A stretch of 64,000 nucleotides of DNA from the IMG/VR virus record IMGVR_UViG_3300027997_000002. One strand, 5' to 3'. The stretch is from a virus. Below are positions 4,257 through 39,885 of the stretch, piece by piece (the first letter of the stretch is position 1; every line of letters starts with the position of its first letter). The notes below the pieces were generated by a model. The model worked only from the letters and a program-made list of their open reading frames with translations, was not told the DNA's origin and did not search any database. The position numbers were made by a program, and so were the translations under genes.

Positions 4257-5081
4257 ATGAGATGCCCAGAATGCAACGGTGAAGGTTGGACCACGAGCCT
4301 CGGCAACTGCTGGCAGAAGTGCCGGACCTGCAAGGGCAAGAGGGAACTCGATGTCATCCTCGAGGAACCGAGCCAACTCCCGCCCAAGGACGAGATCGTC
4401 GAGGCGCGTCCGAAGCGTGAGACACCGTTGGTGGTGCGCGATGCATCCGACTACGACCGCGTGGTGTACGACTACGCGATCCGCCGGGTGAAGAAGCCTG
4501 AGCAGGAGAGGGAGGTCGGTACGCGCGAGCTGGTCACCGAGCTGCTCCAGCGCGTGGACCGGCTCGAGAACGAGATCATCGGCCTACGCGCCGGGGGAGG
4601 GGTCGCGCGCAGCGAGTTCGCCGGCAACATCCCCATCCCCGAGCAGAACCATCCCTACGTACTCTCCGAGTCGATTGTGGTGAAGCCGGGGGCGATGTCA
4701 TCGCTCCACCTCACCCCGAACATGTACTCGGAGGAGCACGAGTTGCTAAGCGTGATCGTCACCGCAACGAGCGACATGGACGGAAGGGACATGGCCACCC
4801 AGGGGTTCGTCGAGAAGATCGAAATCATGGGCTGGAGCATCATCTACCAGATGCCCTGCTCAGCGTTTCGGGGCGAGCCCATGCAACCTCAGATAGGGCC
4901 CGGACGCAGCTTGCCCAATGTGAACTACCAGACCGGAATCGGGGTCTGGCTCAAAAACCTCGACAAGCTCCACCCGATCCGATTCGACGCAACCGCGTGG
5001 CTGCGCCGGATCCACCGCATCGAACAACCAACCTCGGGTGACATCGCCCGGCTCAGAGGAGACTGCAACAATGGCCGCTAA
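4257..5081 (+). CDS. Zn-finger + coiled coil + beta-sandwich (jelly-roll-like) protein
   Basis: N-terminal CPECNGEG...CRTCKG; C-terminal ~125 aa of alternating beta strands resembling 40045-40770. Confidence 0.6.
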   Translation: MRCPECNGEGWTTSLGNCWQKCRTCKGKRELDVILEEPSQLPPKDEIVEARPKRETPLVVRDASDYDRVVYDYAIRRVKKPEQEREVGTRELVTELLQRVDRLENEIIGLRAGGGVARSEFAGNIPIPEQNHPYVLSESIVVKPGAMSSLHLTPNMYSEEHELLSVIVTATSDMDGRDMATQGFVEKIEIMGWSIIYQMPCSAFRGEPMQPQIGPGRSLPNVNYQTGIGVWLKNLDKLHPIRFDATAWLRRIHRIEQPTSGDIARLRGDCNNGR

Positions 5082-5340
5082 CGACAACCTCCTGCAAAAA
5101 GCACAGGACTTCATGCGTATCGTCGACTCGACGATCGACGTTCTCAAGGACCAGGGCGAGAAGAAGAAGGCAGGCGAAGAGGCGGAGATCGACGACCCGC
5201 GTAAGATCGCCGACCTGTTCGACCTGGTCGGCAAAAAGCTCGGCGAGAAGCACGGCCCCGACTACGTCGATGGCCTCGTCGGCCGCATCCAGGACCGCCG
5301 CGGCGGTCCGGAGGACGACGACGATGCCCCCGAAGGCTGA
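5071..5340 (+). CDS. Acidic helical hypothetical protein
   Basis: RBS GAGGAG, coupled. Confidence 0.55.
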   Translation: MAANDNLLQKAQDFMRIVDSTIDVLKDQGEKKKAGEEAEIDDPRKIADLFDLVGKKLGEKHGPDYVDGLVGRIQDRRGGPEDDDDAPEG

Positions 5341-22311: not shown

Positions 22312-22518
22312 TCACCGTACCACGGCAGTGCGTCCGCGTGCGTTGATCTTGACGTCGACCGCGATCACCTTGCAGCCCTGGTCGTTGCAGTCGAATACGC
22401 GCTTGGCCTGGACATAGCCGAGGCGCACGAGTCCGTAGGCTGTGTTGGCCTTGTTGGTCCGGAACCAGCCGCGAGCTTGCGCGCAGTTGTTCAGGAGACG
22501 CTGCTGTGCTGGGCTCAT
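22312..22518 (-). CDS. Small winged-helix-like protein
   Basis: MSPAQQRLL...LVRLGYV...INARGR. Confidence 0.55.
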   Translation of the reverse strand: MSPAQQRLLNNCAQARGWFRTNKANTAYGLVRLGYVQAKRVFDCNDQGCKVIAVDVKINARGRTAVVR

Positions 22519-22922: not shown

Positions 22923-23848
22923 TGCTTGCCTTCCATGATGCTGTTGACGTGATCGCGATAGGTCTCGGCGACGCCCTGGTCGTTTTGAGCGTGGTTGCCC
23001 GCCCGGCCACCGGTGGCGCCCTTGGCCTCCTCAGGCGCCCGCCTGGCGGCGTAGCTCCACGCAAGCGAGTCGGAGCTTGCGATGTACGGAGCGGCGTAGC
23101 GCAGCGCCTGTGCGCCCAGGCCGAACGCGTGGAGCCCGAGCCCGCCCTGGACTCCCGCCAACTCGCGAAGGATCTCGACGGGCTCCCGGACGCTCTTGCG
23201 CCGGCAGATGGAGCCGACGCCCACGCGCTGCATGTCGCCAAGGATGACGCCGGCGTCGCGGTACATCTCGACGTGGTGCATGTAGTCGCCAAGCTCCCAG
23301 CCTTGCAGCACGGGCAACCAGTGGACCTCGGGCGCCATCGCGAAGAGCGTCCGGAAGTTGTCGACCGTGCGGCGCTGGTGCTCGGCGATGGTCAGGCCGG
23401 TAGCACGCAGCGCCGTCTCCTCGCACATCCAGTCCTGGATCGACACCCAGCCGATCGTCCCCAGCTCGCGCTGGTACCTCAGGACCTCGTCGACGAACGC
23501 CTCGGGGCTCACGGTCCAGCGTCCGTGCTGGTGCAGCTCGGTGAATCCTCCGCTGTCGACGTAGACGGGGACCGTGGCCTTGGGGTAGGCGGTGATCCGC
23601 CGGCGGATCTGGCGGATGCTCAAAAACAGGGGGCCCTGGGCGTCCCCGGCGAACGCCCAGTGCGGCCGATGGGTCCCGAGGATGAATCCCTCGTCGGACT
23701 CGTCGAGCCACGGGCACGGTCCCCCCTGGTGCTTGCCCCAGCGGTCGTACCAGAGATCGGGGACCTCGGCGCAGTCGGCCGGGTCGTGGACGAGCCCGTG
23801 CTCGTCCTCGAACGCCTCGATCGCTTCGCGTGTATCGTCGCTATGCAT
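22919..23848 (-). CDS. DpdA-like (TGT-fold) 7-deazaguanine DNA transglycosylase
   Basis: LGTHRPHW, DSGGF, QDWMCE, PVLQGW, VGVGSICRR, LHAFG, SSDSLAWS. Confidence 0.75.
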   Translation of the reverse strand: MHSDDTREAIEAFEDEHGLVHDPADCAEVPDLWYDRWGKHQGGPCPWLDESDEGFILGTHRPHWAFAGDAQGPLFLSIRQIRRRITAYPKATVPVYVDSGGFTELHQHGRWTVSPEAFVDEVLRYQRELGTIGWVSIQDWMCEETALRATGLTIAEHQRRTVDNFRTLFAMAPEVHWLPVLQGWELGDYMHHVEMYRDAGVILGDMQRVGVGSICRRKSVREPVEILRELAGVQGGLGLHAFGLGAQALRYAAPYIASSDSLAWSYAARRAPEEAKGATGGRAGNHAQNDQGVAETYRDHVNSIMEGKQ

Positions 23849-24146
23849 GCGTCTGCCTGCGCCGCAGCGTTCCGTGTTTGCGTGCGGCTTCCCACAGTGT
23901 ATGGCGCGAGACCCCGAGCGCGCGAGCTAGCTCCCCGATCGGCATGTCGGAGACACGGACCGCCTCGGCGAGTCGCTTCAGGTTGAACCCGCGGCCCGGT
24001 CGCGGGCCCTTGGGTCGCATCACGCCGGCGCGTGAGACCGCACGCCCCGCGATCGTGGCTGAGCGCCCGCATAGCTCGGCCGCTTGCTGGAGAGTCTTGC
24101 CGCCGGTGTAGAGCCGGACGATCTCCGCGTGGACTTCCGCGCTCAC
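23841..24146 (-). CDS. Tandem HTH DNA-binding protein
   Basis: LYTGGKTLQQAAELCGRS and IGELARALGVSRHTLW; GTGA overlap with sigma gene. Confidence 0.7.
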   Translation of the reverse strand: MSAEVHAEIVRLYTGGKTLQQAAELCGRSATIAGRAVSRAGVMRPKGPRPGRGFNLKRLAEAVRVSDMPIGELARALGVSRHTLWEAARKHGTLRRRQTHA

Positions 24147-24664
24147 GCGTCCGCTCCCACGGTCTCGCGCAGGCCGGCCACGACATCCGTGCGCCAGCGT
24201 GACGCCGTCGCGATGCTCACGCCCCGGCGCTCTGCCAGCTTGGAGATCCCCCCGTACTCGTACGACGTGACCAGGTCGCGCCAGGCCTTCCCGGTTGCCA
24301 AGCTGGCGACGCCGAGATCGTGCGCCAGCTCGAACACTTCGTCGGCGCGCCTGGGGTCGACGATCCGCTCGGTGTCGCGCTCGTCCTTGATCAACCGCTC
24401 GGAGTTGCGCCCGGCTCGCGTGCCCGTGATGCCGCGCCGGTGGTCTCGCATGGCGCCGTCGATCCGCCGGGCCGCGAATGCCCACAGCGTGACGCCCCGG
24501 TTCGGCTCGAACCGTGTGCGCGCCTCGGCGAGCGCGAGGAGCCCGACGGCTGCCAGCTCGCGGGAGTCGGCGCCGATGTCGGTCCAGCGCTGGGCATGGT
24601 GGTACGCGAGCCGCTCGACGCGGCGCACGTGCCATGGGTGAACAGTCCTGCTCATGGTCGTCAT
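24143..24664 (-). CDS. Minimal sigma-70-family (FliA-like) sigma factor
   Basis: Region 2 ELAAVGLLALAEARTRFEPNRGVTLWAFAARRIDGAMRDHRR; region 4 ISKLAERRGVSIATASRW. Confidence 0.8.
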   Translation of the reverse strand: MTTMSRTVHPWHVRRVERLAYHHAQRWTDIGADSRELAAVGLLALAEARTRFEPNRGVTLWAFAARRIDGAMRDHRRGITGTRAGRNSERLIKDERDTERIVDPRRADEVFELAHDLGVASLATGKAWRDLVTSYEYGGISKLAERRGVSIATASRWRTDVVAGLRETVGADA

Positions 24665-24667
24665 GGG

Positions 24668-24721
24668 TTCCATCCTTCTTGCAGCGTCATGCCGCACGCT
24701 GAGGGCTCGCACGGTGCGTCC
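24668..24721 (-). promoter_or_regulatory. Conserved leader module, copy 1 (sigma gene)
   Basis: GGACGCACCG...GGCATGACGCTGCAAGAAGGATGGAA before ATG. Confidence 0.75.
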
Positions 24722-25092: not shown

Positions 25093-26018
25093 CACATCGC
25101 CTCCCGTACCTGCGTGGCGATCCACTCGCCCACGGCCGGCGGCACCGCATTGCCGAGCCCGCACACGACGTCGCCCCGCGTGGCGTCGTCTGGCCAGCCG
25201 TAGCTATCCGGGAAGCCCATCGCCCTGGCGTTCTCGCGGAGCGTCAGGGGCCGGTACATGCGACCACGCACGACGGCCCATTGATCCTTGGTGGTGATGG
25301 TCCGGATCGGTTCGTCGAGCCCGACGCCTGGGTGGTTGCTGACGTGCTGCGTGATGAAGCGGTCGCCATGGCGCTTGCGTCCGTTGGCGATCCGTCGACG
25401 CACGGCAGCCGACGCTCCGGTGATGGGGCGCCAGTTGCCAGCGCGCCAATCGATGCACGGCCCGAAGGCGGGCTCACGGCCGCGTGGAGCCTCGACCCGC
25501 AAGGCGCCCCGGTCACGCAGCCCGACAATGAACAGCCGCCTGCGGCGCTGTGGCACGCCCAGGCGGGACGCTGTGACCACATGCTCGGAAAGCGAGTAGC
25601 CCAGATACTGCAGGCAATCGCGCCACTGTGGATAGAGACGCCAGCGTCGGAAGGCTGGCACGTTCTCCACGACGATCGCCCTGGGCTCGGTCACGTCCAC
25701 GCAGTCGACGATCGCCCAGGCGGTTGCACGCAGCGCGTCGTGCTTGCGTCGCGTCCGTCCGCTCGCGGCCCGGCTCGGCTGTGCCGCGCTGCTGTGGCCC
25801 TGGCACGCTGGCGCGGCCAGTAGCAGATCGTACTCGGGCAGCGTCGCCCAGTCGCACTGCCGCAGATCCTGGCACGCATGCGTGGTCCGGGGATGGTTCT
25901 GAGCGTGAGCCTCGACCGCGAACGGCCAGTGGTTGGCGGCCCACGCAACCCGGCAGCCCGCACGCTCGGCGCCGAGCGTGAAGCCACCGAGCCCCGCGAA
26001 CAAGTCGACGGCGATCAC
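25092..26018 (-). CDS. dcm: DNA (cytosine-5)-methyltransferase
   Basis: DLFAGLGG (I), APACQGHS (IV, PC variant), ENV (VI), QRRRRLF (VIII), LGNAVPP (X). Confidence 0.92.
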   Translation of the reverse strand: MIAVDLFAGLGGFTLGAERAGCRVAWAANHWPFAVEAHAQNHPRTTHACQDLRQCDWATLPEYDLLLAAPACQGHSSAAQPSRAASGRTRRKHDALRATAWAIVDCVDVTEPRAIVVENVPAFRRWRLYPQWRDCLQYLGYSLSEHVVTASRLGVPQRRRRLFIVGLRDRGALRVEAPRGREPAFGPCIDWRAGNWRPITGASAAVRRRIANGRKRHGDRFITQHVSNHPGVGLDEPIRTITTKDQWAVVRGRMYRPLTLRENARAMGFPDSYGWPDDATRGDVVCGLGNAVPPAVGEWIATQVREAM

Positions 26019-26446
26019 GACAGGGCCTCGGGATCGATCTCGGTGTGATGTTCGTCCGTGAGCGTCGAGCGTCCGTCTAGCTCGCATAGGGCGTCCGATA
26101 CCTCGTGAGCCCAGCACGTGATGCTGTGGATCTGGCGCTTGCGTGCTGTGCTGAACACAAGGCCCAGCGTGGTGGCAAGGTGGATCAGAGCGTCGCGGTC
26201 CGCTTGCTCCGACTGTGCGAGCCGGCCCAGCGGTACGGCGATTGTGTCGACGGGCTCGGCGGGACCGTGCAAGCCGTCAGGGTCGCACGCAAGGCAACGG
26301 CAAACGCCGCTGTACAGGCTGCGGCGTGCAGCGTTCAGCGTGCATTCACCACAGCGGCAGATGTGGCCGTACGTGTGCCAGCGTTCGGCGCTCCAATCCT
26401 TCGCGGCGATCGGCGGCGTTGTGTTGCCAAATGGGTCGTGTGCCAT
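26015..26446 (-). CDS. Cys-rich hypothetical protein
   Basis: CRCGEC...CRCLAC. Confidence 0.55.
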   Translation of the reverse strand: MAHDPFGNTTPPIAAKDWSAERWHTYGHICRCGECTLNAARRSLYSGVCRCLACDPDGLHGPAEPVDTIAVPLGRLAQSEQADRDALIHLATTLGLVFSTARKRQIHSITCWAHEVSDALCELDGRSTLTDEHHTEIDPEALS

Positions 26447-26455
26447 GCCTCCGTG

Positions 26456-26507
26456 TCCATCCTTCTGCAGCGTCATGCTGCCACCTGCCGGCTCGCGCGG
26501 TGCGTCC
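26456..26507 (-). promoter_or_regulatory. Conserved leader module, copy 2
   Basis: GGACGCACCG...GCAGCATGACGCTGCAGAAGGATGGA. Confidence 0.75.
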
Positions 26508-26527
26508 GGCAGGGGGCGGCGTGGCGC

Positions 26528-26770
26528 CTAGCTGGCCTTGCGTCGACGACGTTGCGGCGGGTCAGCGACGGCCACGGGGGCAGGAGGGTTCAGGCCTTCG
26601 GCGCGTGTGGCCAGCGTGAGCGTGAGCGTGGAGGGAGGCTCGGGGCTCTCGAACGCGGTCCGTTTCACGTACAGCGTCCCCACCAGCCAGTCGGCGCGAT
26701 CGCCTTGCTCCTTGTAGCGGTGCGTCCCCTTGGTGCTTTTCTCGTAGTCGAATGTGATCGTGGCGTTCAT
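26528..26770 (-). CDS. Small beta-hairpin (AbrB-like?) protein, first gene of leftward early operon
   Basis: ITFDYEKSTKGTHRYKE...VGTLYVKR; preceded by GAAGGATGGA at 26777-26786. Confidence 0.6.
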   Translation of the reverse strand: MNATITFDYEKSTKGTHRYKEQGDRADWLVGTLYVKRTAFESPEPPSTLTLTLATRAEGLNPPAPVAVADPPQRRRRKAS

Positions 26771-26822
26771 GGCCTGTCCATCCTTCGGGGCGGTTCTGCC
26801 GCCCGTCCAGACGCTACCACGA

Positions 26823-27103
26823 TCTCGCCCCCAGGGGGGCCCTTTCTCGCCCTGGCCAGCGTGGGGGCGAGAATCCTCACGCCAGGGCGAGAATCCCGCA
26901 GCGTGGCCTGAGAGCCAACACGCGCCCCGCTGAGCGGTTTTTCTCGCCCTGGTATAACGGTGCGTCCAGGGCGAGAAAACCCCACCTGAGGGATCCGGCC
27001 CCCCAGCGTGGGCTATCTCGCCCTGTACGGCCAGCGCGATCGCGTTCTCGCCCCGGGGGCCCCATAGCGTCCAGAATCTCGCCCTTTTGTTTTCTCGCCC
27101 TGG
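26823..27103. repeat. Array of 10 TCTCGCCC octamers in a divergent intergenic region, including a perfect 14-bp inverted repeat
   Basis: Forward at 26823, 26845, 26942, 27016, 27046, 27077, 27093; reverse at 26865, 26885, 26969; IR 26939-52/26966-79 around TATAAC. Confidence 0.9.
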
Positions 27104-27158
27104 GGCTGGTAGCTTGAGCGTGGGGCCGGTTTCGCCGGCTCCAGAAGGATGGACCCTC

Positions 27159-27884
27159 ATGCCAGGATACGTGCTCTACCGCGGACCGTCGTTGCTGGAC
27201 GGTTCGCCGATCGTGGCCATCGCCACGACGGACAGTCGCAACCGGAAGACCGGCGACATGATTCAAGTGTGGATCCTGCCGGCCGACATGTCCCCCGTCG
27301 AAGCCGTACACGCCGGGCTCGACGACAGCGTCTGCGGCGATTGCTCGCTTCGCGGCACCACGCAGGACGGCAGCAACGTCGGCCGCACCTGCTACGTGCG
27401 AGTCTTCCATGGACCGCTCAGCGTCTACAAGGCATGGCGGCGCGGCCGGTACCCCGAGCCCGCGCTGCACTGGCTGGCTGACCTTGCGTCCGGTCGACAC
27501 GTGAGGCTCGGCGCCTACGGCGATCCGGCCGCGGTACCCCGCGCCGTGTGGGAGCGTCTGCTCACCTACGCGGCGGGCTGGACCGGCTACACGCACCAAT
27601 GGCGGACCGGGCTCGCGATGGCCGATCTGTGCATGGCCAGCGTGGAGACGGACAGCGACGCCGCCGAGGCTCGCGCCCTGGGCTACCGGGTGTTTCACGT
27701 CACGCAAGGCGCCGAGCCTCGGCGCGAGGGGTACATGGTCTGCCCGGCCAGCGACGAGGCGGGCCACCGCCTGCAGTGCGACGAGTGTGGAGCGTGCGCC
27801 GGCACCAGCGCCGCCGCTCGGTCCAACGTCCAGATCGCGGCCCATGGCAGCGGCAGGGTCCACCTGCAGGTGGTGGCGGCGTGA
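27159..27884 (+). CDS. Conserved Cys-rich phage protein (GP88-like), first gene of rightward early operon
   Basis: NRKTGDMIQ, CGDCSLR...CY, RLGAYGDPAA, GYTHQW, CPAS...CDECGAC; preceded by GAAGGATGGA at 27144-27153. Confidence 0.7.
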   Translation: MPGYVLYRGPSLLDGSPIVAIATTDSRNRKTGDMIQVWILPADMSPVEAVHAGLDDSVCGDCSLRGTTQDGSNVGRTCYVRVFHGPLSVYKAWRRGRYPEPALHWLADLASGRHVRLGAYGDPAAVPRAVWERLLTYAAGWTGYTHQWRTGLAMADLCMASVETDSDAAEARALGYRVFHVTQGAEPRREGYMVCPASDEAGHRLQCDECGACAGTSAAARSNVQIAAHGSGRVHLQVVAA

Positions 27885-28111
27885 CCCGGGCACAGGTGGC
27901 AACGCTCGCCCAGACGCTGGGCGCCGCCGGCGTCGTGGTGACGTCGGCCGTGCTGTCGGAGCGTGGCGACGTGATCGAGGTAGTCCAGCCGGAGCGCTCG
28001 TCGCTGCGTTGGGACTTCACCGGAACCGGTGACCCGGTTCGCAAGCGAACGCCCAAGCGACTGGCCGCGCTCGTGCGGCAGGTGATGGACGCATCGGCGG
28101 TGGCAGCATGA
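27881..28111 (+). CDS. Hypothetical protein
   Basis: GTGA overlap. Confidence 0.5.
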   Translation: MTRAQVATLAQTLGAAGVVVTSAVLSERGDVIEVVQPERSSLRWDFTGTGDPVRKRTPKRLAALVRQVMDASAVAA

Positions 28112-28314
28112 ACGGCGCACGCTACCTCACCCCAGAAGAGCAGGCGTTCGCGGTCTGGTTGCTCGACCGCGCGCCGCTCGTGCTCCACGTGATGGCCAGG
28201 GCGCTCGCCCATTGGCCTGTACCCAATGACAAGGCAAAGCAGCAAGAACGCCGCGATCTCAACTATGCTCAAGCGTGGCTCCGTGACCACGCAGCGAAGG
28301 ATGACGAAGGATGA
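28108..28314 (+). CDS. Hypothetical protein
   Basis: ATGA overlaps. Confidence 0.55.
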   Translation: MNGARYLTPEEQAFAVWLLDRAPLVLHVMARALAHWPVPNDKAKQQERRDLNYAQAWLRDHAAKDDEG

Positions 28315-28943
28315 CGACAGCGACCCACCTATGCCGCGAGTGCGGCGTCATGCGTCCCCACCACCAATGCGAGACCGGCGAGGCCGGTTGCCTGCACTGC
28401 GACGAGTGCAGCAACATGCTCTACCCTGACGGCCCCCCGGCCGACGTGGGCTGCCCCAACTGCGGCGGTGACGTCGACGCTAACGGGCGCTGCCAACAGT
28501 CCTGCGAACCGTTCCGCGCCGAGGCTGACTTTTGGTGCCGCGGGTGCCAGGAGGTGACCGACCACACGCACGCCGACTACACCGGGACCGGCGAGCCCCG
28601 GTTCCAATGCGAGCAGTGCGGACGCTGGCTGGAACCCTGCGACGACTGCGGCAGCGAACCATGCCCGCGCCACGACGAGGCGCCGCGCATCCGGGCCGCG
28701 TTCGCGGCGGCCGGCTTCCACGTCGAGGACACCGGCGGCGGAGCGCAGGCGTTCGCTCGCACCGACGGCGACAAGCAGACGCTGGTCACGCTCCACGACG
28801 ACGCCCGGCTACCAACGCGGTTCGACGAAGCGGTGTTCGCTGGCATCTACGTCGCCGACCCGGAGGAGCCCTGGTGCTTCGACGAGCAGGTCGACTGCGA
28901 CGGCTACGAGAGCGTCACTAGCTACCTGGCGCGCTGGCTGTGA
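28311..28943 (+). CDS. Multi-Zn-ribbon protein
   Basis: Seven CxxC-type pairs in the N-terminal half. Confidence 0.6.
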   Translation: MTTATHLCRECGVMRPHHQCETGEAGCLHCDECSNMLYPDGPPADVGCPNCGGDVDANGRCQQSCEPFRAEADFWCRGCQEVTDHTHADYTGTGEPRFQCEQCGRWLEPCDDCGSEPCPRHDEAPRIRAAFAAAGFHVEDTGGGAQAFARTDGDKQTLVTLHDDARLPTRFDEAVFAGIYVADPEEPWCFDEQVDCDGYESVTSYLARWL

Positions 28944-28986
28944 CGTCGCGGTGCCTACGGCTCGGGAGCCCAGCTCGCGCGCCGTG

Positions 28987-29014
28987 GGCAGCATGACGCT
29001 GCAAGAAGGATGGA
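28987..29014 (+). promoter_or_regulatory. Conserved leader module, copy 3
   Basis: GGCAGCATGACGCTGCAAGAAGGATGGA six nt before ATG 29021. Confidence 0.75.
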
Positions 29015-29020
29015 CAGGCA

Positions 29021-29371
29021 ATGACCGGACACAGATGGCACCACGGGCCCGAGCTTCGCAGGACCCACCACTCCCTCGGCATGGACGACAAGAAGGGCCG
29101 CGCGATCGGTGCGATCGTCGTCGTGCGCATTGTAACGGTCGTCGAGAGCGGGGGCTACCGCAACCGCGAGGCGGACGCTCTGCCCATTGGCACGGAGTCG
29201 GTCAGCGTCTGCATCACGGCCGCGCGCCGCGGCCTGCCGTTCGGAGCCTCTCAGAACTCGAAGCGCATTGGCCCCCCGGGTGCCGCGACGGACGCCAAGG
29301 TCAAGGCGGAGATCGAGCGCCGCATCGCGTCCATGACCACGCGCTACCGCAAGCAGTTCGGAGGTGCGTGA
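29021..29371 (+). CDS. Hypothetical beta-sheet protein
   Basis: Follows leader module. Confidence 0.6.
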   Translation: MTGHRWHHGPELRRTHHSLGMDDKKGRAIGAIVVVRIVTVVESGGYRNREADALPIGTESVSVCITAARRGLPFGASQNSKRIGPPGAATDAKVKAEIERRIASMTTRYRKQFGGA

Positions 29372-29604
29372 TGGCGACCCCCGAACATCCCGAGTGGGTG
29401 CGCGAGCCCATCACGATAACCGACGCGGACTACCGAGCCGCCCGCAATGGCAACCTGGGCCTGTGCCTGGAGTGCGGCGCCGAGCGTGGCGGCTGCGAGC
29501 CAGACGCGCGACGCTACTACTGCGAAGCGTGTGAAGGCTCCGCGGTCTACGGCATCGAGGAGCTGCTCATGATGAACCTGCTCAACATCGTGGAGGAGGC
29601 CTGA
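29371..29604 (+). CDS. Small Zn-ribbon phage protein
   Basis: GLCLECG...EPDARRYYCEACE...VYGIEELL. Confidence 0.65.
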   Translation: MATPEHPEWVREPITITDADYRAARNGNLGLCLECGAERGGCEPDARRYYCEACEGSAVYGIEELLMMNLLNIVEEA

Positions 29605-29607
29605 GCC

Positions 29608-29967
29608 ATGAAAGCCAACCTCAACCGCATGATCTTCGAGTTGGAGGGCGCTCTCACACTGGCGCGCCAGCTCCCGACCGACCTCGACCACAAGGAGCTG
29701 ACCGACGCTCGCATGGCCGTGATCGGCCAGCGTCTCAACCGGGCCACCAAGGGCTACAACGCGCTCGGCGAGGAGCTGGACGACCGCGTCAATGCCCTCG
29801 ACCCACCAGTGGCACCGGTGGACGCGGACGCCTGGCGCGAGGGCGACGTCAACTGCCCGGGCTGCGATTCGAACGAACCGCTGGTGACCGAGACGCTCTA
29901 CGGTGGCCGCATGACGCAGCTGCGTTGCAGCAACTGCGGCCATGCGGGGGAAGAGGGCTCATGCTGA
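29608..29967 (+). CDS. Coiled coil + Zn ribbon protein
   Basis: CPGC...CSNC. Confidence 0.55.
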   Translation: MKANLNRMIFELEGALTLARQLPTDLDHKELTDARMAVIGQRLNRATKGYNALGEELDDRVNALDPPVAPVDADAWREGDVNCPGCDSNEPLVTETLYGGRMTQLRCSNCGHAGEEGSC

Positions 29968-30740
29968 CCCCAGTCTGCCAACGATGGCGCGCGGGCCGAG
30001 ACAGCTACCGGCCGGCGCGCGAGACCATCCGCACCGCGGACTACGAGGTCGCACGCATCGACACCGACCGCGTGGCCAAGTCGTTCGTGCTCGCGCATCA
30101 CTATAGTGGGACGTACCCGGCGTCGCGCTTCCGCTTCGGGCTCTACCAGCGCGAGCTGGTCGGCGTCGCCGTCTTCGCCGTGCCTGCGCAGCCCCGATGC
30201 CTCGACGTGCTCCCGGGCGACCGCATGACGGGCGTCGTGCTCGGGCGCTTCGTCCTCGTCGACCAGGTCCCCGCCAACGGCGAGTCCTGGTTCATCGCGC
30301 GCTGCTTCGAGCTGCTTCGCGACGCTGGCATCACCGGCGTTGTCTCGTTCTCCGATCCAGCCAGGCGCACGTCCGCATCGGGCGACGTCGTGTTCGGTGG
30401 TCACGTAGGGACCATCTACCAGGCCACCAACGCGCGGTACCTCGGGACCTCCAAGGCCGAGCGTCGCTGGCTGCTACCGGACGGACGCGTGCTCGACCCA
30501 CGTGCGCTGTCGAAGATCCGCCGGCGCGACCAGGGCTGGCGGTACGCTGCGGCCCAGCTCGAAGCGTTCGGCGCGAGGCCCTTACGCAAGCAGGAGCCGC
30601 GAGCGTGGCTCGACCGCTGGCTCGAGCGCTTGTGCCGACCGCTGCGTCACCCGGGCAATCACAAGTACGCGTGGGCCCTGCAGCGTCGCGACCGACGGCA
30701 TCTGCCGGCGAGCCTCCCGTACCCGAAGGTGGTGGGCTGA
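29961..30740 (+). CDS. mom: Mom-family adenine modification (GNAT-like) enzyme
   Basis: HHYSG, LGRFVLVDQVPANGESWF, VVSFSDP, GHVGTIYQATNARYLG. Confidence 0.85.
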   Translation: MLTPVCQRWRAGRDSYRPARETIRTADYEVARIDTDRVAKSFVLAHHYSGTYPASRFRFGLYQRELVGVAVFAVPAQPRCLDVLPGDRMTGVVLGRFVLVDQVPANGESWFIARCFELLRDAGITGVVSFSDPARRTSASGDVVFGGHVGTIYQATNARYLGTSKAERRWLLPDGRVLDPRALSKIRRRDQGWRYAAAQLEAFGARPLRKQEPRAWLDRWLERLCRPLRHPGNHKYAWALQRRDRRHLPASLPYPKVVG

Positions 30741-31622: not shown

Positions 31623-31951
31623 GCTTCAAGCAACCCATGCTCCGCGACGAGACCCAACGCTACGTCGCCGCGACCATCGAGGCCCTCGGCGTCGACGAGC
31701 GCACGGTGCTCAAAGAGTGGCTCCGGGGTGAGAGCCTCGCGTCGTGCCCACGCTGGCTCGAGTCCTACCTGGGCGAGTTGGCGTGGGACAACCAGATGCT
31801 GCGCAACGGTCTGCGGGCCGGGATCATCGTCGTGCGTCAGATGTTGAATCAAATCCCGGCTGGGCCTCAACTGGGCGACGACCTCATCGGCCAGGCCAAG
31901 CTTTGGGTCAACTACGCAGCCGGCCTCGGCGAAAGGAAGCGACCGAAATGA
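31619..31951 (+). CDS. Hypothetical protein
   Basis: ATGA overlaps. Confidence 0.55.
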   Translation: MSFKQPMLRDETQRYVAATIEALGVDERTVLKEWLRGESLASCPRWLESYLGELAWDNQMLRNGLRAGIIVVRQMLNQIPAGPQLGDDLIGQAKLWVNYAAGLGERKRPK

Positions 31952-32160
31952 ACAAGATCATCAACACCACCAACTACCGTTCGCAGGAGCTTGCGATCGA
32001 ATGGCTGCGCAAGAACGGCGGCCGCGCCAAGATCTCTGGCGGCCAGGTCGCGCTCGCACGTGCGCTCGCTCGCAAGGGTCTCGCCCGGCTCGTGCGTGCG
32101 CGAGCGCCCGACAACGGCTATATCGTCGAGCTGACCGAGGAGGGGAGGCGCAGCGGCTAA
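31948..32160 (+). CDS. Small winged-helix-like protein
   Basis: ALARALARKGLARL...VELTEEGR. Confidence 0.6.
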   Translation: MNKIINTTNYRSQELAIEWLRKNGGRAKISGGQVALARALARKGLARLVRARAPDNGYIVELTEEGRRSG

Positions 32161-35742: not shown

Positions 35743-35753
35743 CGGTGCTCCCC

Positions 35754-35875
35754 TATACGCGCGTAGAGAAGTGAGCACAGATGTAAATCCCTTACACTTC
35801 TGTTCAATATGTCGCTTCACTTGATATTTGCTTCAACATCACAGTTCAACTCCTAGTCCTACGCGCGCCTATAAT
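35754..35875. other. Candidate replication origin / helicase promoter
   Basis: ~90-bp AT-rich core with TTCA repeats bracketed by inverted CGCGCGTAG/CTACGCGCG; TATAAT at 35870-75. Confidence 0.5.
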
Positions 35876-35926
35876 ACCGAAGCAAACGCGTGACACGCGC
35901 TGCTTCAAAATGGCCCGGCAAGTACC

Positions 35927-39177: not shown

Positions 39178-39180
39178 TTT

Positions 39181-39315
39181 GGTTCCTGGAAGTCGTTCCC
39201 GAAATCGTTCCAATATTCCAGGTCATCCCGGAACGCTACAATACGTAGCATAGAAAGACACCATTTAGAGCATAGAAAAACGCTCCAAATACGGTGTTTG
39301 CAATGGGGCTAAACC
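39181..39315. promoter_or_regulatory. AT-rich divergent control region of the main structural operon
   Basis: AGCATAGAAA at 39247 and 39269 (22-bp spacing); TCGTTCC twice at 12-bp spacing. Confidence 0.55.
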
Positions 39316-39885
39316 ATGTTCCAGACTACTGCGCAGGTCGCCGGTGCTCGGTGGCCGCAACAAAAGCAATCTTTGACCGCGATGCGGGAGTCGAAAAGCG
39401 GCATGAAAAAGTCAAGCACTCTCAACGAGCTCAGCAAACCCCAGGTCATCGACCTCCTGCACCGGGTGCGCAGCAAGTCCAAGAACCTCAAGCAGAACGC
39501 ACAGAGGCTCACGAACCGGGTTCTAGGGGCGGCCATCGCGGCGGGCACCGGATACGGCCTCGGGTATTGGATGGGCGGCATGCGTCACGAGAAGGAAACC
39601 ATTCTCAAGACTGCAGGACTCGATCCAAACACGACGACCCCCGAGCAGGCTGACGCTGCTCTCGAGGCGGCCGGCGGAGATCCCACCCAGTGGTTCGGCG
39701 TTAACAAGGACATCGTGGTCGCGGTCGGTCTCACCGGCGTTGCGCTCACGGGCCTTGCGGGCGATGCCGACCGCTCGACGGTGGGCATGGTCGTCGAGCA
39801 CGCTGCGGCGGGCTCGCTGGGCGCGGCGTTCTACGGCGCCGGGCTCGACAAGGGCTACGACAGCTCGATTAGCGAAGCTGCCTAG
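39316..39885 (+). CDS. Major membrane/core protein candidate with three Gly/Ala hydrophobic helices
   Basis: Basic N-terminus then GAAIAAGTGYGLGY, VAVGLTGVALTG, AAGSLGAAFYGAG; first gene of operon. Confidence 0.65.
   Translation: MFQTTAQVAGARWPQQKQSLTAMRESKSGMKKSSTLNELSKPQVIDLLHRVRSKSKNLKQNAQRLTNRVLGAAIAAGTGYGLGYWMGGMRHEKETILKTAGLDPNTTTPEQADAALEAAGGDPTQWFGVNKDIVVAVGLTGVALTGLAGDADRSTVGMVVEHAAAGSLGAAFYGAGLDKGYDSSISEAA

Follow-up and report, generated by a model that had tools for sequence, protein, structure and literature searches.

The divergent early control region

The virus, at least 76 kb in size, was found in identical form (99.97-100%) in at least four assemblies from seawater samples. 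The window analysed here, by which we mean the whole stretch of 64,000 nucleotides, is 64.8% GC and its small genes are densely packed. A HerA/FtsK-type packaging ATPase is encoded and no terminase, and a tyrosine integrase gene is located just left of the window (L278:2540-3577), ~30 kb from the array described below; because of this integrase, the virus is considered temperate.

A divergent intergenic control region of 388 bp (26771-27158; 68% GC) separates an 80-aa gene on the minus strand (26528-26770) from a 241-aa gene on the plus strand (27159-27884), each of which is the first gene of an early operon. The gap is filled by a short-repeat array, and the location at an "early divergent switch" given in the preliminary description is thus borne out as a position between the first genes of two divergent early operons. 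Beyond the 80-aa gene, the leftward operon encodes a Cys-rich 143-aa protein, a C5 DNA methylase, an ECF-like sigma factor, a 101-aa protein with two helix-turn-helix (HTH) modules, and DpdA. The rightward operon includes genes for a Mom-like protein, a RepB-type primase and a UvrD-type helicase. A second divergent gap, located before the late operon (39178-39372), is the lowest-GC spot of the window (44%) and carries four GGAAC/GTTCC words that resemble ECF-type -35 elements; it may be a target of the virus's own sigma factor (24143-24673).

Both first genes are preceded by a short hairpin and the same private ribosome site, GAAGGATGGA. In the leader of the 241-aa gene (27124-27153, plus strand), this site (27144-27153) follows a hairpin, GGCCGG-TTTCG-CCGGC, the stem of which is retained in relatives though the letters of both loop and stem differ. 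The leader of the 80-aa gene (26777-26804, minus strand) has the same arrangement, with the hairpin GGGCGG-CAGAA-CCGCCC (26788-26804) followed by the ribosome site at 26777-26786.

The ten-copy repeat array

Ten exact copies of the core TCTCGCCC were found within 278 bp (26823-27100), seven forward and three reverse. Numbered R1 to R10 from left to right, the cores start at 26823, 26845, 26942, 27016, 27046, 27077 and 27093 on the plus strand, and at 26865, 26885 and 26969 on the minus strand. The complete 12-mer, TTCTCGCCCTGG, is present in five array copies. The preliminary description had reported ten copies in these orientations, several of them extended, and its count and coordinates proved exact. 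Over both strands of the 64-kb window, TCTCGCCC occurs 19 times, compared with 6.21 ± 2.60 in dinucleotide-preserving shuffles, none of which (0/100) reached 19. The chance expectation per 285 bp is only ~0.03-0.04 copies, giving a probability of ~1e-21 for at least ten. No one-mismatch variants of the core were present in 26700-27200.

A weight matrix built from the ten copies gave a site consensus of approximately W-TCTCGCCC-Y-G-G, with W at position -1 and Y at +1. Position -10 is a G in nine of the ten copies, which constitutes a weak second conserved element ~10 bp upstream of the core. When the window was scanned with this matrix, the array copies accounted for 10 of the 12 best matches. 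The sole complete TTCTCGCCCTGG beyond the array within the window, at 5151-5162 on the minus strand and inside gene 5071-5340, may be an outlying site or a chance occurrence. Two more TCTCGCCC cores, in opposite orientations and 57 bp apart, lie ~1.4 kb left of the window start (L278:4072-4136), ~0.5 kb from the tyrosine integrase; the adjoining gap (L278:3578-3740) is strikingly AT-rich and may hold attP. No other short-repeat array was detected in the window and the 8.7 kb beyond it (~73 kb of genome).

The spacing of the cores is uneven (22, 20, 20, 57, 27, 47, 30, 31 and 16 bp), with R1-R4 phased at 20-22 bp. R5 and R6 together form a perfect 14-bp inverted repeat, TTTTCTCGCCCTGG at 26939-26952 and CCAGGGCGAGAAAA at 26966-26979, with a 13-nt loop that contains TATAAC, exactly as had been noted before. 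On the minus strand the loop reads GGACGCACCG, a word that occurs exactly four times in the window, always on the minus strand (24712, 26498, 26718 and 26958); the copy at 26958 is that of the palindrome loop, and those at 24712 and 26498 are in hairpin-plus-RBS leaders before left-operon genes. The array also includes small dyads, namely the palindrome CGCGATCGCG (27035-27044), GCCCCC-A-GGGGGGC (26827-26840) and GCCCC-G-GGGGC (27050-27060), the last of which is changed symmetrically to GCCCT-G-AGGGC in the relative L250. A second, dimeric factor may bind at these dyads.

Three extended -10-like elements of the form TGGTA-N3-T/C were recognized in the 388-bp region, compared with 0.42 expected (P=0.009), and each is located 0-6 bp from a core. 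By eye, they suggest three candidate promoters. The candidate leftward promoter, P_L, has TGGTAGCGT at 26811-26819 on the minus strand, 3 nt from R1; the relative L251 has TGGTAGTCT at the equivalent place. A candidate internal rightward promoter has TGGTATAAC at 26950-26958, directly after the R5 core. The candidate rightward promoter, P_R, would consist of TTGTTT (27087-27092), a 17-nt spacer opened by R10, and TGGTAGCTT (27107-27115), spanning 27087-27115 on the plus strand. A scan of the region with the sigma-70 consensus gave no promoter.

The heptamer AGCGTGG, which had been described as recurring four times in the array, was indeed found there at 26858, 26900, 27005 and 27117. These four copies belong to a wider cluster of eleven over 26166-30602, all on the plus strand (~0.5 expected, P ~1e-11), which crosses genes in all reading frames, antisense strands and non-coding DNA, and AGCGTGG is the most locally enriched 7-mer of the region. 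For this reason, it is a phenomenon separate from the TCTCGCCC array. It may be a polar DNA-level word centred on the early switch, conceivably a Chi-like one.

Conservation in relatives

Diverged relatives are known from short contigs only: L165, L250 (of the same lineage as L249) and L251. The contig L165, in which the 241-aa protein is 84% identical, spans R5-R10. Its array part is 95.5% identical to that of the virus, compared with 83% for the adjacent coding sequence, 70% for third codon positions and 78% for the leader. The contig L250, in which the 80-aa protein is 89% identical, spans the whole gap at 91% identity. Nine of its ten cores are intact, R3 being changed to TCCCGCCC, and the L250-type variant was also found on a contig from a marine-sediment run. 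Changes affect 1 of 80 core positions, compared with 17 of 214 positions elsewhere (one-sided Fisher p=0.022), and the R5/R6 inverted repeat is 100% conserved in both L165 and L250. The preliminary description had proposed that an array not conserved in relatives would, together with an absence of protein binding, speak against the role it envisaged; in both of these relatives, the array is conserved. By alignment, the array sites appear conserved beyond neutral expectation, as under purifying selection. The spacers are also well conserved, which may reflect dense function or a recent exchange of the segment.

The third relative, L251, is more distant. The 80-aa protein (71% identity) and the 76-aa gene are kept, and the hairpin-plus-RBS design and the TGGTA elements are shared. 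Its sequence contains no TCTCGCCC, only a borderline, degenerate family resembling TATTSCGGCA. Neither the 241-aa gene nor the 143-aa gene is present, nor is a primase encoded at the corresponding position. Where the virus has its primase, L251 has an intein-split helicase, the intein carrying a LAGLIDADG homing endonuclease (L251:3-1448).

Wider searches returned no further relatives of the array. The palindrome pattern had no match in viral_contigs, and in genome_contigs it matched 21 isolated hairpins in unrelated bacteria, with no genes in common with the window. A three-copy pattern matched 84 loci, nearly all with regular spacing, mostly in multiples of 3 as in in-frame tandem repeats, and these loci had no proteins in common with the window except for one weak methylase match. 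A search of viral_contigs with the sigma-factor protein gave no relatives. For the 80-aa family, there were no matches in genome_contigs and two distant matches without context in viral_contigs. A DNA search of the phage database gave weak gene-level matches only. The array is private to this virus lineage, and it can be assigned to no family by homology.

Candidate readers of the motif

Two of the binders named in the preliminary description are products of the leftward operon. The 80-aa protein appears to be a small beta-barrel with a basic tail, PPQRRRRKAS, and matches no Pfam or PHROG family. It is disfavoured as the binder, judging from L251, and so is the 76-aa protein, because both are retained there without TCTCGCCC. 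The 101-aa protein (23841-24146, minus strand), encoded by the sixth gene of the operon, fared better. In its model (pLDDT 88.6), a basic Pro/Gly linker of 16 residues connects two HTH modules of three helices each, and relatives of the protein contain three to six such modules. Foldseek matches to the model were weak (E 0.04-0.4) and included Tc3/Mos1 transposases, AraC-type regulators, a paired-type domain, a CRISPR-repeat-binding protein and Mu Mor. The bipartite fold is apt and makes this protein the best structural fit among the candidates, although this is a likeness of predicted shape only. A protein of this kind could read asymmetric sites as a monomer in either orientation, which would suit the mixed orientation, the irregular spacing and the upstream element of the array.

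The Cys-rich 143-aa protein (26015-26446) is a possible binder, but its HICRCGEC motif fits the HxxxCxxC of zinc anti-sigma factors (by eye; there is no Pfam match), which suggests an anti-sigma factor instead. Its N-terminal 75 residues are ~80% conserved in relatives and its C-terminal half is divergent; the true start of the gene is likely the ATG at 26446. The 241-aa protein, which is assigned to phrog_2554 and weakly to DUF7227 and has seven invariant Cys residues, is unlikely to be the binder, as it models as an enzyme-like alpha/beta fold (pLDDT 93.8) rather than a DNA-binding one. Its best structural matches were weak and were all to radical-SAM enzymes (QueE first, Z 5.2). Further candidate binders are two proteins that look like winged helices, of 70 aa (31948-32160) and 68 aa (22312-22518), and the primase through its C-terminal half.

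A proposed operator array

We consider it about an even call that the array is a multi-site operator array that controls both early operons. The ten sites would serve as operators for one virus-encoded, sequence-specific DNA-binding protein. This putative protein would recognize an asymmetric site of ~12-21 bp and would probably do so as a monomer, or as a module on a loose tether, which is proposed to explain why the sites are mixed in orientation and unevenly spaced. At the two ends of the array, R1 and R10 fall within the spacers of the predicted promoters P_L and P_R, and R5 and R6 bracket the third, internal -10-like element. Occupancy of the sites might switch off both early operons together, either as an early shut-off or as silencing in the lysogen, and the inner sites might contribute cooperativity or looping. 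If the binder were the 101-aa product of the leftward operon, the circuit would be autoregulatory. The sites themselves, where they lie, how well they are kept and their restriction to this lineage are observed; protein binding, repression as its effect and the identity of the binder are what we infer.

Several observations favour the operator reading. The ten cores are exact, with conserved flanks and no degenerate copies, and they lie exactly between the divergent early operons, where the repeats abut three -10-like elements. The array appears to be under purifying selection, its cores changing less than its spacers. The region is GC-rich, with no DNA unwinding element (DUE) and no DnaA box, and AT-rich gaps are found elsewhere. 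The leftward operon encodes a two-HTH protein, and corticovirus PM2 has the same layout. Moreover, an integrase-bearing virus would need a means of silencing its early operons.

Other observations speak against it. The promoters were read by eye, and the sigma-70 scan was negative. The spacers are conserved as well as the cores, possibly through the segment exchange considered above. The array is also the sole one of its kind in ~73 kb, and an origin must exist somewhere. Of the two possibilities raised in the preliminary description, a lysis/lysogeny switch with multiple operators or an iteron-type origin, the operator fits better, given the three -10-like elements and the GC-richness, and the iteron origin is weakened. 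The multi-operator part of the first is favoured, and the specific assignment to lysis/lysogeny does not follow, since both flanking operons look lytic and early, and a classical CI/Cro bistable switch is not evident.

Alternative explanations

An iteron-type origin, alone or combined with promoter control, is the strongest competitor of the operator reading, though an unlikely one. On this view a viral initiator, which could be the C-terminal portion of the 604-aa RepB-primase-like protein, would bind the repeats, so that the primase and the UvrD-type helicase are loaded at the array, with the 14-bp palindrome possibly extruded as a priming hairpin. This would account for the array being the only one with multiple short repeats in the sequence available, for the iteron-like phasing of R1-R4, and for a genome in which primase and helicase are encoded with no recognised initiator; in L251, a single case, the array is absent and so is a primase at the matching position. 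Phage P4 provides a precedent, as its short repeats, present in both orientations, are bound by its primase-helicase. The base composition of the array speaks against an origin: it is 68% GC, above the genome mean, and even its lowest 60-bp window is 58% GC. No AT-rich unwinding element adjoins it, the AT-rich spots of the window being at 35761 and 39131, and the region contains no DnaA box with up to one mismatch. GC skew, suggested earlier as a check, is flat and uninformative. A distance of 6.8 kb separates the array from the primase gene. Directly after that gene, between primase and helicase (35743-35926), there is an AT-rich gap with short repeats of its own. This gap is the second most AT-rich spot of the window (45-49% GC, 45% in 150 bp, vs the 65% mean) and contains three copies of GCTTCA, ACGCGC/GCGCGT palindromes and a perfect TATAAT. 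It is plausibly a better origin candidate than the array. [quoted passage not shown]

A broader interpretation arises from the 241-aa gene. Its homologs are common in unrelated phages, as the first early gene. Across 141 non-redundant loci, 400-bp windows with at least five copies of one 8-mer were ~5 times commoner within 800 bp upstream of the gene than elsewhere. The repeat word of these arrays differs from phage to phage, and in the cases checked the arrays sit between the terminase gene and the 241-aa-type first early gene. The simplest reading is that the homolog tends to be the first early gene beside the main non-coding control or terminal region. It is also conceivable, if doubtful, that private arrays upstream of the phrog_2554 gene constitute a recurrent, portable entry-control module, found in T7-like phages, in phages with T4-type terminases and in this virus. 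Each phage would have its own word and its own factor to read it, and the TCTCGCCC array would be a single case of such a module.

The probability left over falls to roles at the RNA level, in packaging or partition, or for a host factor. If the array acted as RNA, which we regard as quite improbable, it would form part of a long leader in which the three GGGCGAGA copies pair alternately with the seven UCUCGCCC copies, as an attenuator or processing platform, and the palindrome would display the GGACGCACCG loop in the manner of the two other left-operon leader hairpins. The restriction of GGACGCACCG to the minus strand and its recurrence in those leaders are consistent with such a role. Both strands fold better than shuffles (z of -2.8 and -2.4), although such modest scores would arise with any set of inverted copies. 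In relatives, the single altered core is R3 (A>G), and in a plus-strand RNA this change would still allow a G-U pair. However, the predicted promoters are gene-proximal, which would leave most of the array untranscribed. The exactness of the 8-mer in both orientations, together with the conserved non-pairing flanks (W and YGG), is a better fit to recognition of duplex DNA by a protein, and Rfam gave no meaningful family match.

Less probable again is a DNA-handling site, whether a loading or packaging signal for an FtsK/HerA-type ATPase, a partition site resembling a centromere, or clustered arm-type sites for the integrase. FtsK-family motors are guided by 8-bp polar words, and the reverse complement of the core, GGGCGAGA, resembles the KOPS and SRS words in being a G-rich 8-mer. 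The possession of a HerA/FtsK-like ATPase in place of a terminase would agree with this role, as would the arrays of private repeats that, in the unrelated phages with a 241-aa homolog, separate the terminase gene from the first early gene. The mixed orientation of the cores (seven plus, three minus) nevertheless contradicts a polar guide. Among ~50 proteins scanned, no FtsK gamma domain, ParA or ParB was detected, and, with the integrase ~30 kb away, the region has no tRNA-like core.

The distance between the array and the integrase gene speaks against an attP with arm-type sites; no tRNA or tmRNA was found in the array region. Two further identities were rejected. A phage sigma-factor promoter element would hardly occur as ten copies in both orientations within 280 bp, with none before late genes. 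A CRISPR array is excluded, as the preliminary description had argued from the irregular spacing: the cores are 8-14 bp rather than 24-48 bp, their orientation is mixed, the spacings vary from 16 to 57 bp, and Tandem Repeats Finder detected no array.

Significance and comparison with known systems

The group to which this large, tailless, temperate marine virus belongs is undescribed, and there was no prior knowledge of its regulation. The array marks the central control region, offers a precise entry point for tests in the form of a 12-bp word, three candidate promoters and a few candidate binders, and helps to distinguish that region from the probable origin. Since operator arrays with many sites are already well known, the result is useful to the specialist rather than surprising.

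In the transposable phage Mu, the operators comprise about nine to ten short asymmetric consensus copies, in both orientations and irregularly spaced over ~200 bp between divergent promoters, and the repressor is an oligomerising protein with a monomeric DNA-binding domain. O1-O3 is the operator region of the Mu repressor c/Rep (Krause and Higgins 1986, cited in PMC3820752). The present array resembles O1-O3 in having many short asymmetric sites of mixed orientation and irregular spacing between divergent promoters, which here are predicted ones. It differs in that there is no sequence or protein homology and that the Mu sites are degenerate whereas the cores here are exact. Moreover, this virus, with its integrase, primase and helicase, is not a transposable one, and no Mu-type repressor was found in it.

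The corticovirus PM2, a tailless, membrane-containing virus, has divergent early operons, of which the leftward one encodes the repressors P15 and P16 and the rightward one encodes replication functions and late activators (PMC1950889). The virus described here is similarly tailless, with two opposed early operons, regulators leftward and replication functions rightward. In contrast, PM2 has a genome of only 10 kb and a rolling-circle Rep, nothing homologous to P15/P16 was detected here, and a ten-site repeat array is not a described feature of PM2.

The model of the 101-aa protein can be likened to Tc3/Mos1, AraC/MarA, the paired domain and Mu Mor, which are bipartite two-HTH domains that recognize asymmetric sites as monomers, whichever way the sites point, although the candidate has no transposase or AraC sensor domain attached. 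The array also shares features with P4 ori/crr (alpha) and with PICI/SaPI origins, namely a set of short repeats within a single non-coding region, and a primase and helicase encoded by the element itself (PMC6092414, PMC2777425). Unlike these origins, which have an AT-rich melting region and, in PICIs, are adjacent to pri-rep, the array here is GC-rich and 6.8 kb upstream of the primase gene. In layout, the nearest parallels are the operator region of Mu and the region of divergent early promoters in PM2, and the closest rival class is that of the short-iteron origins.
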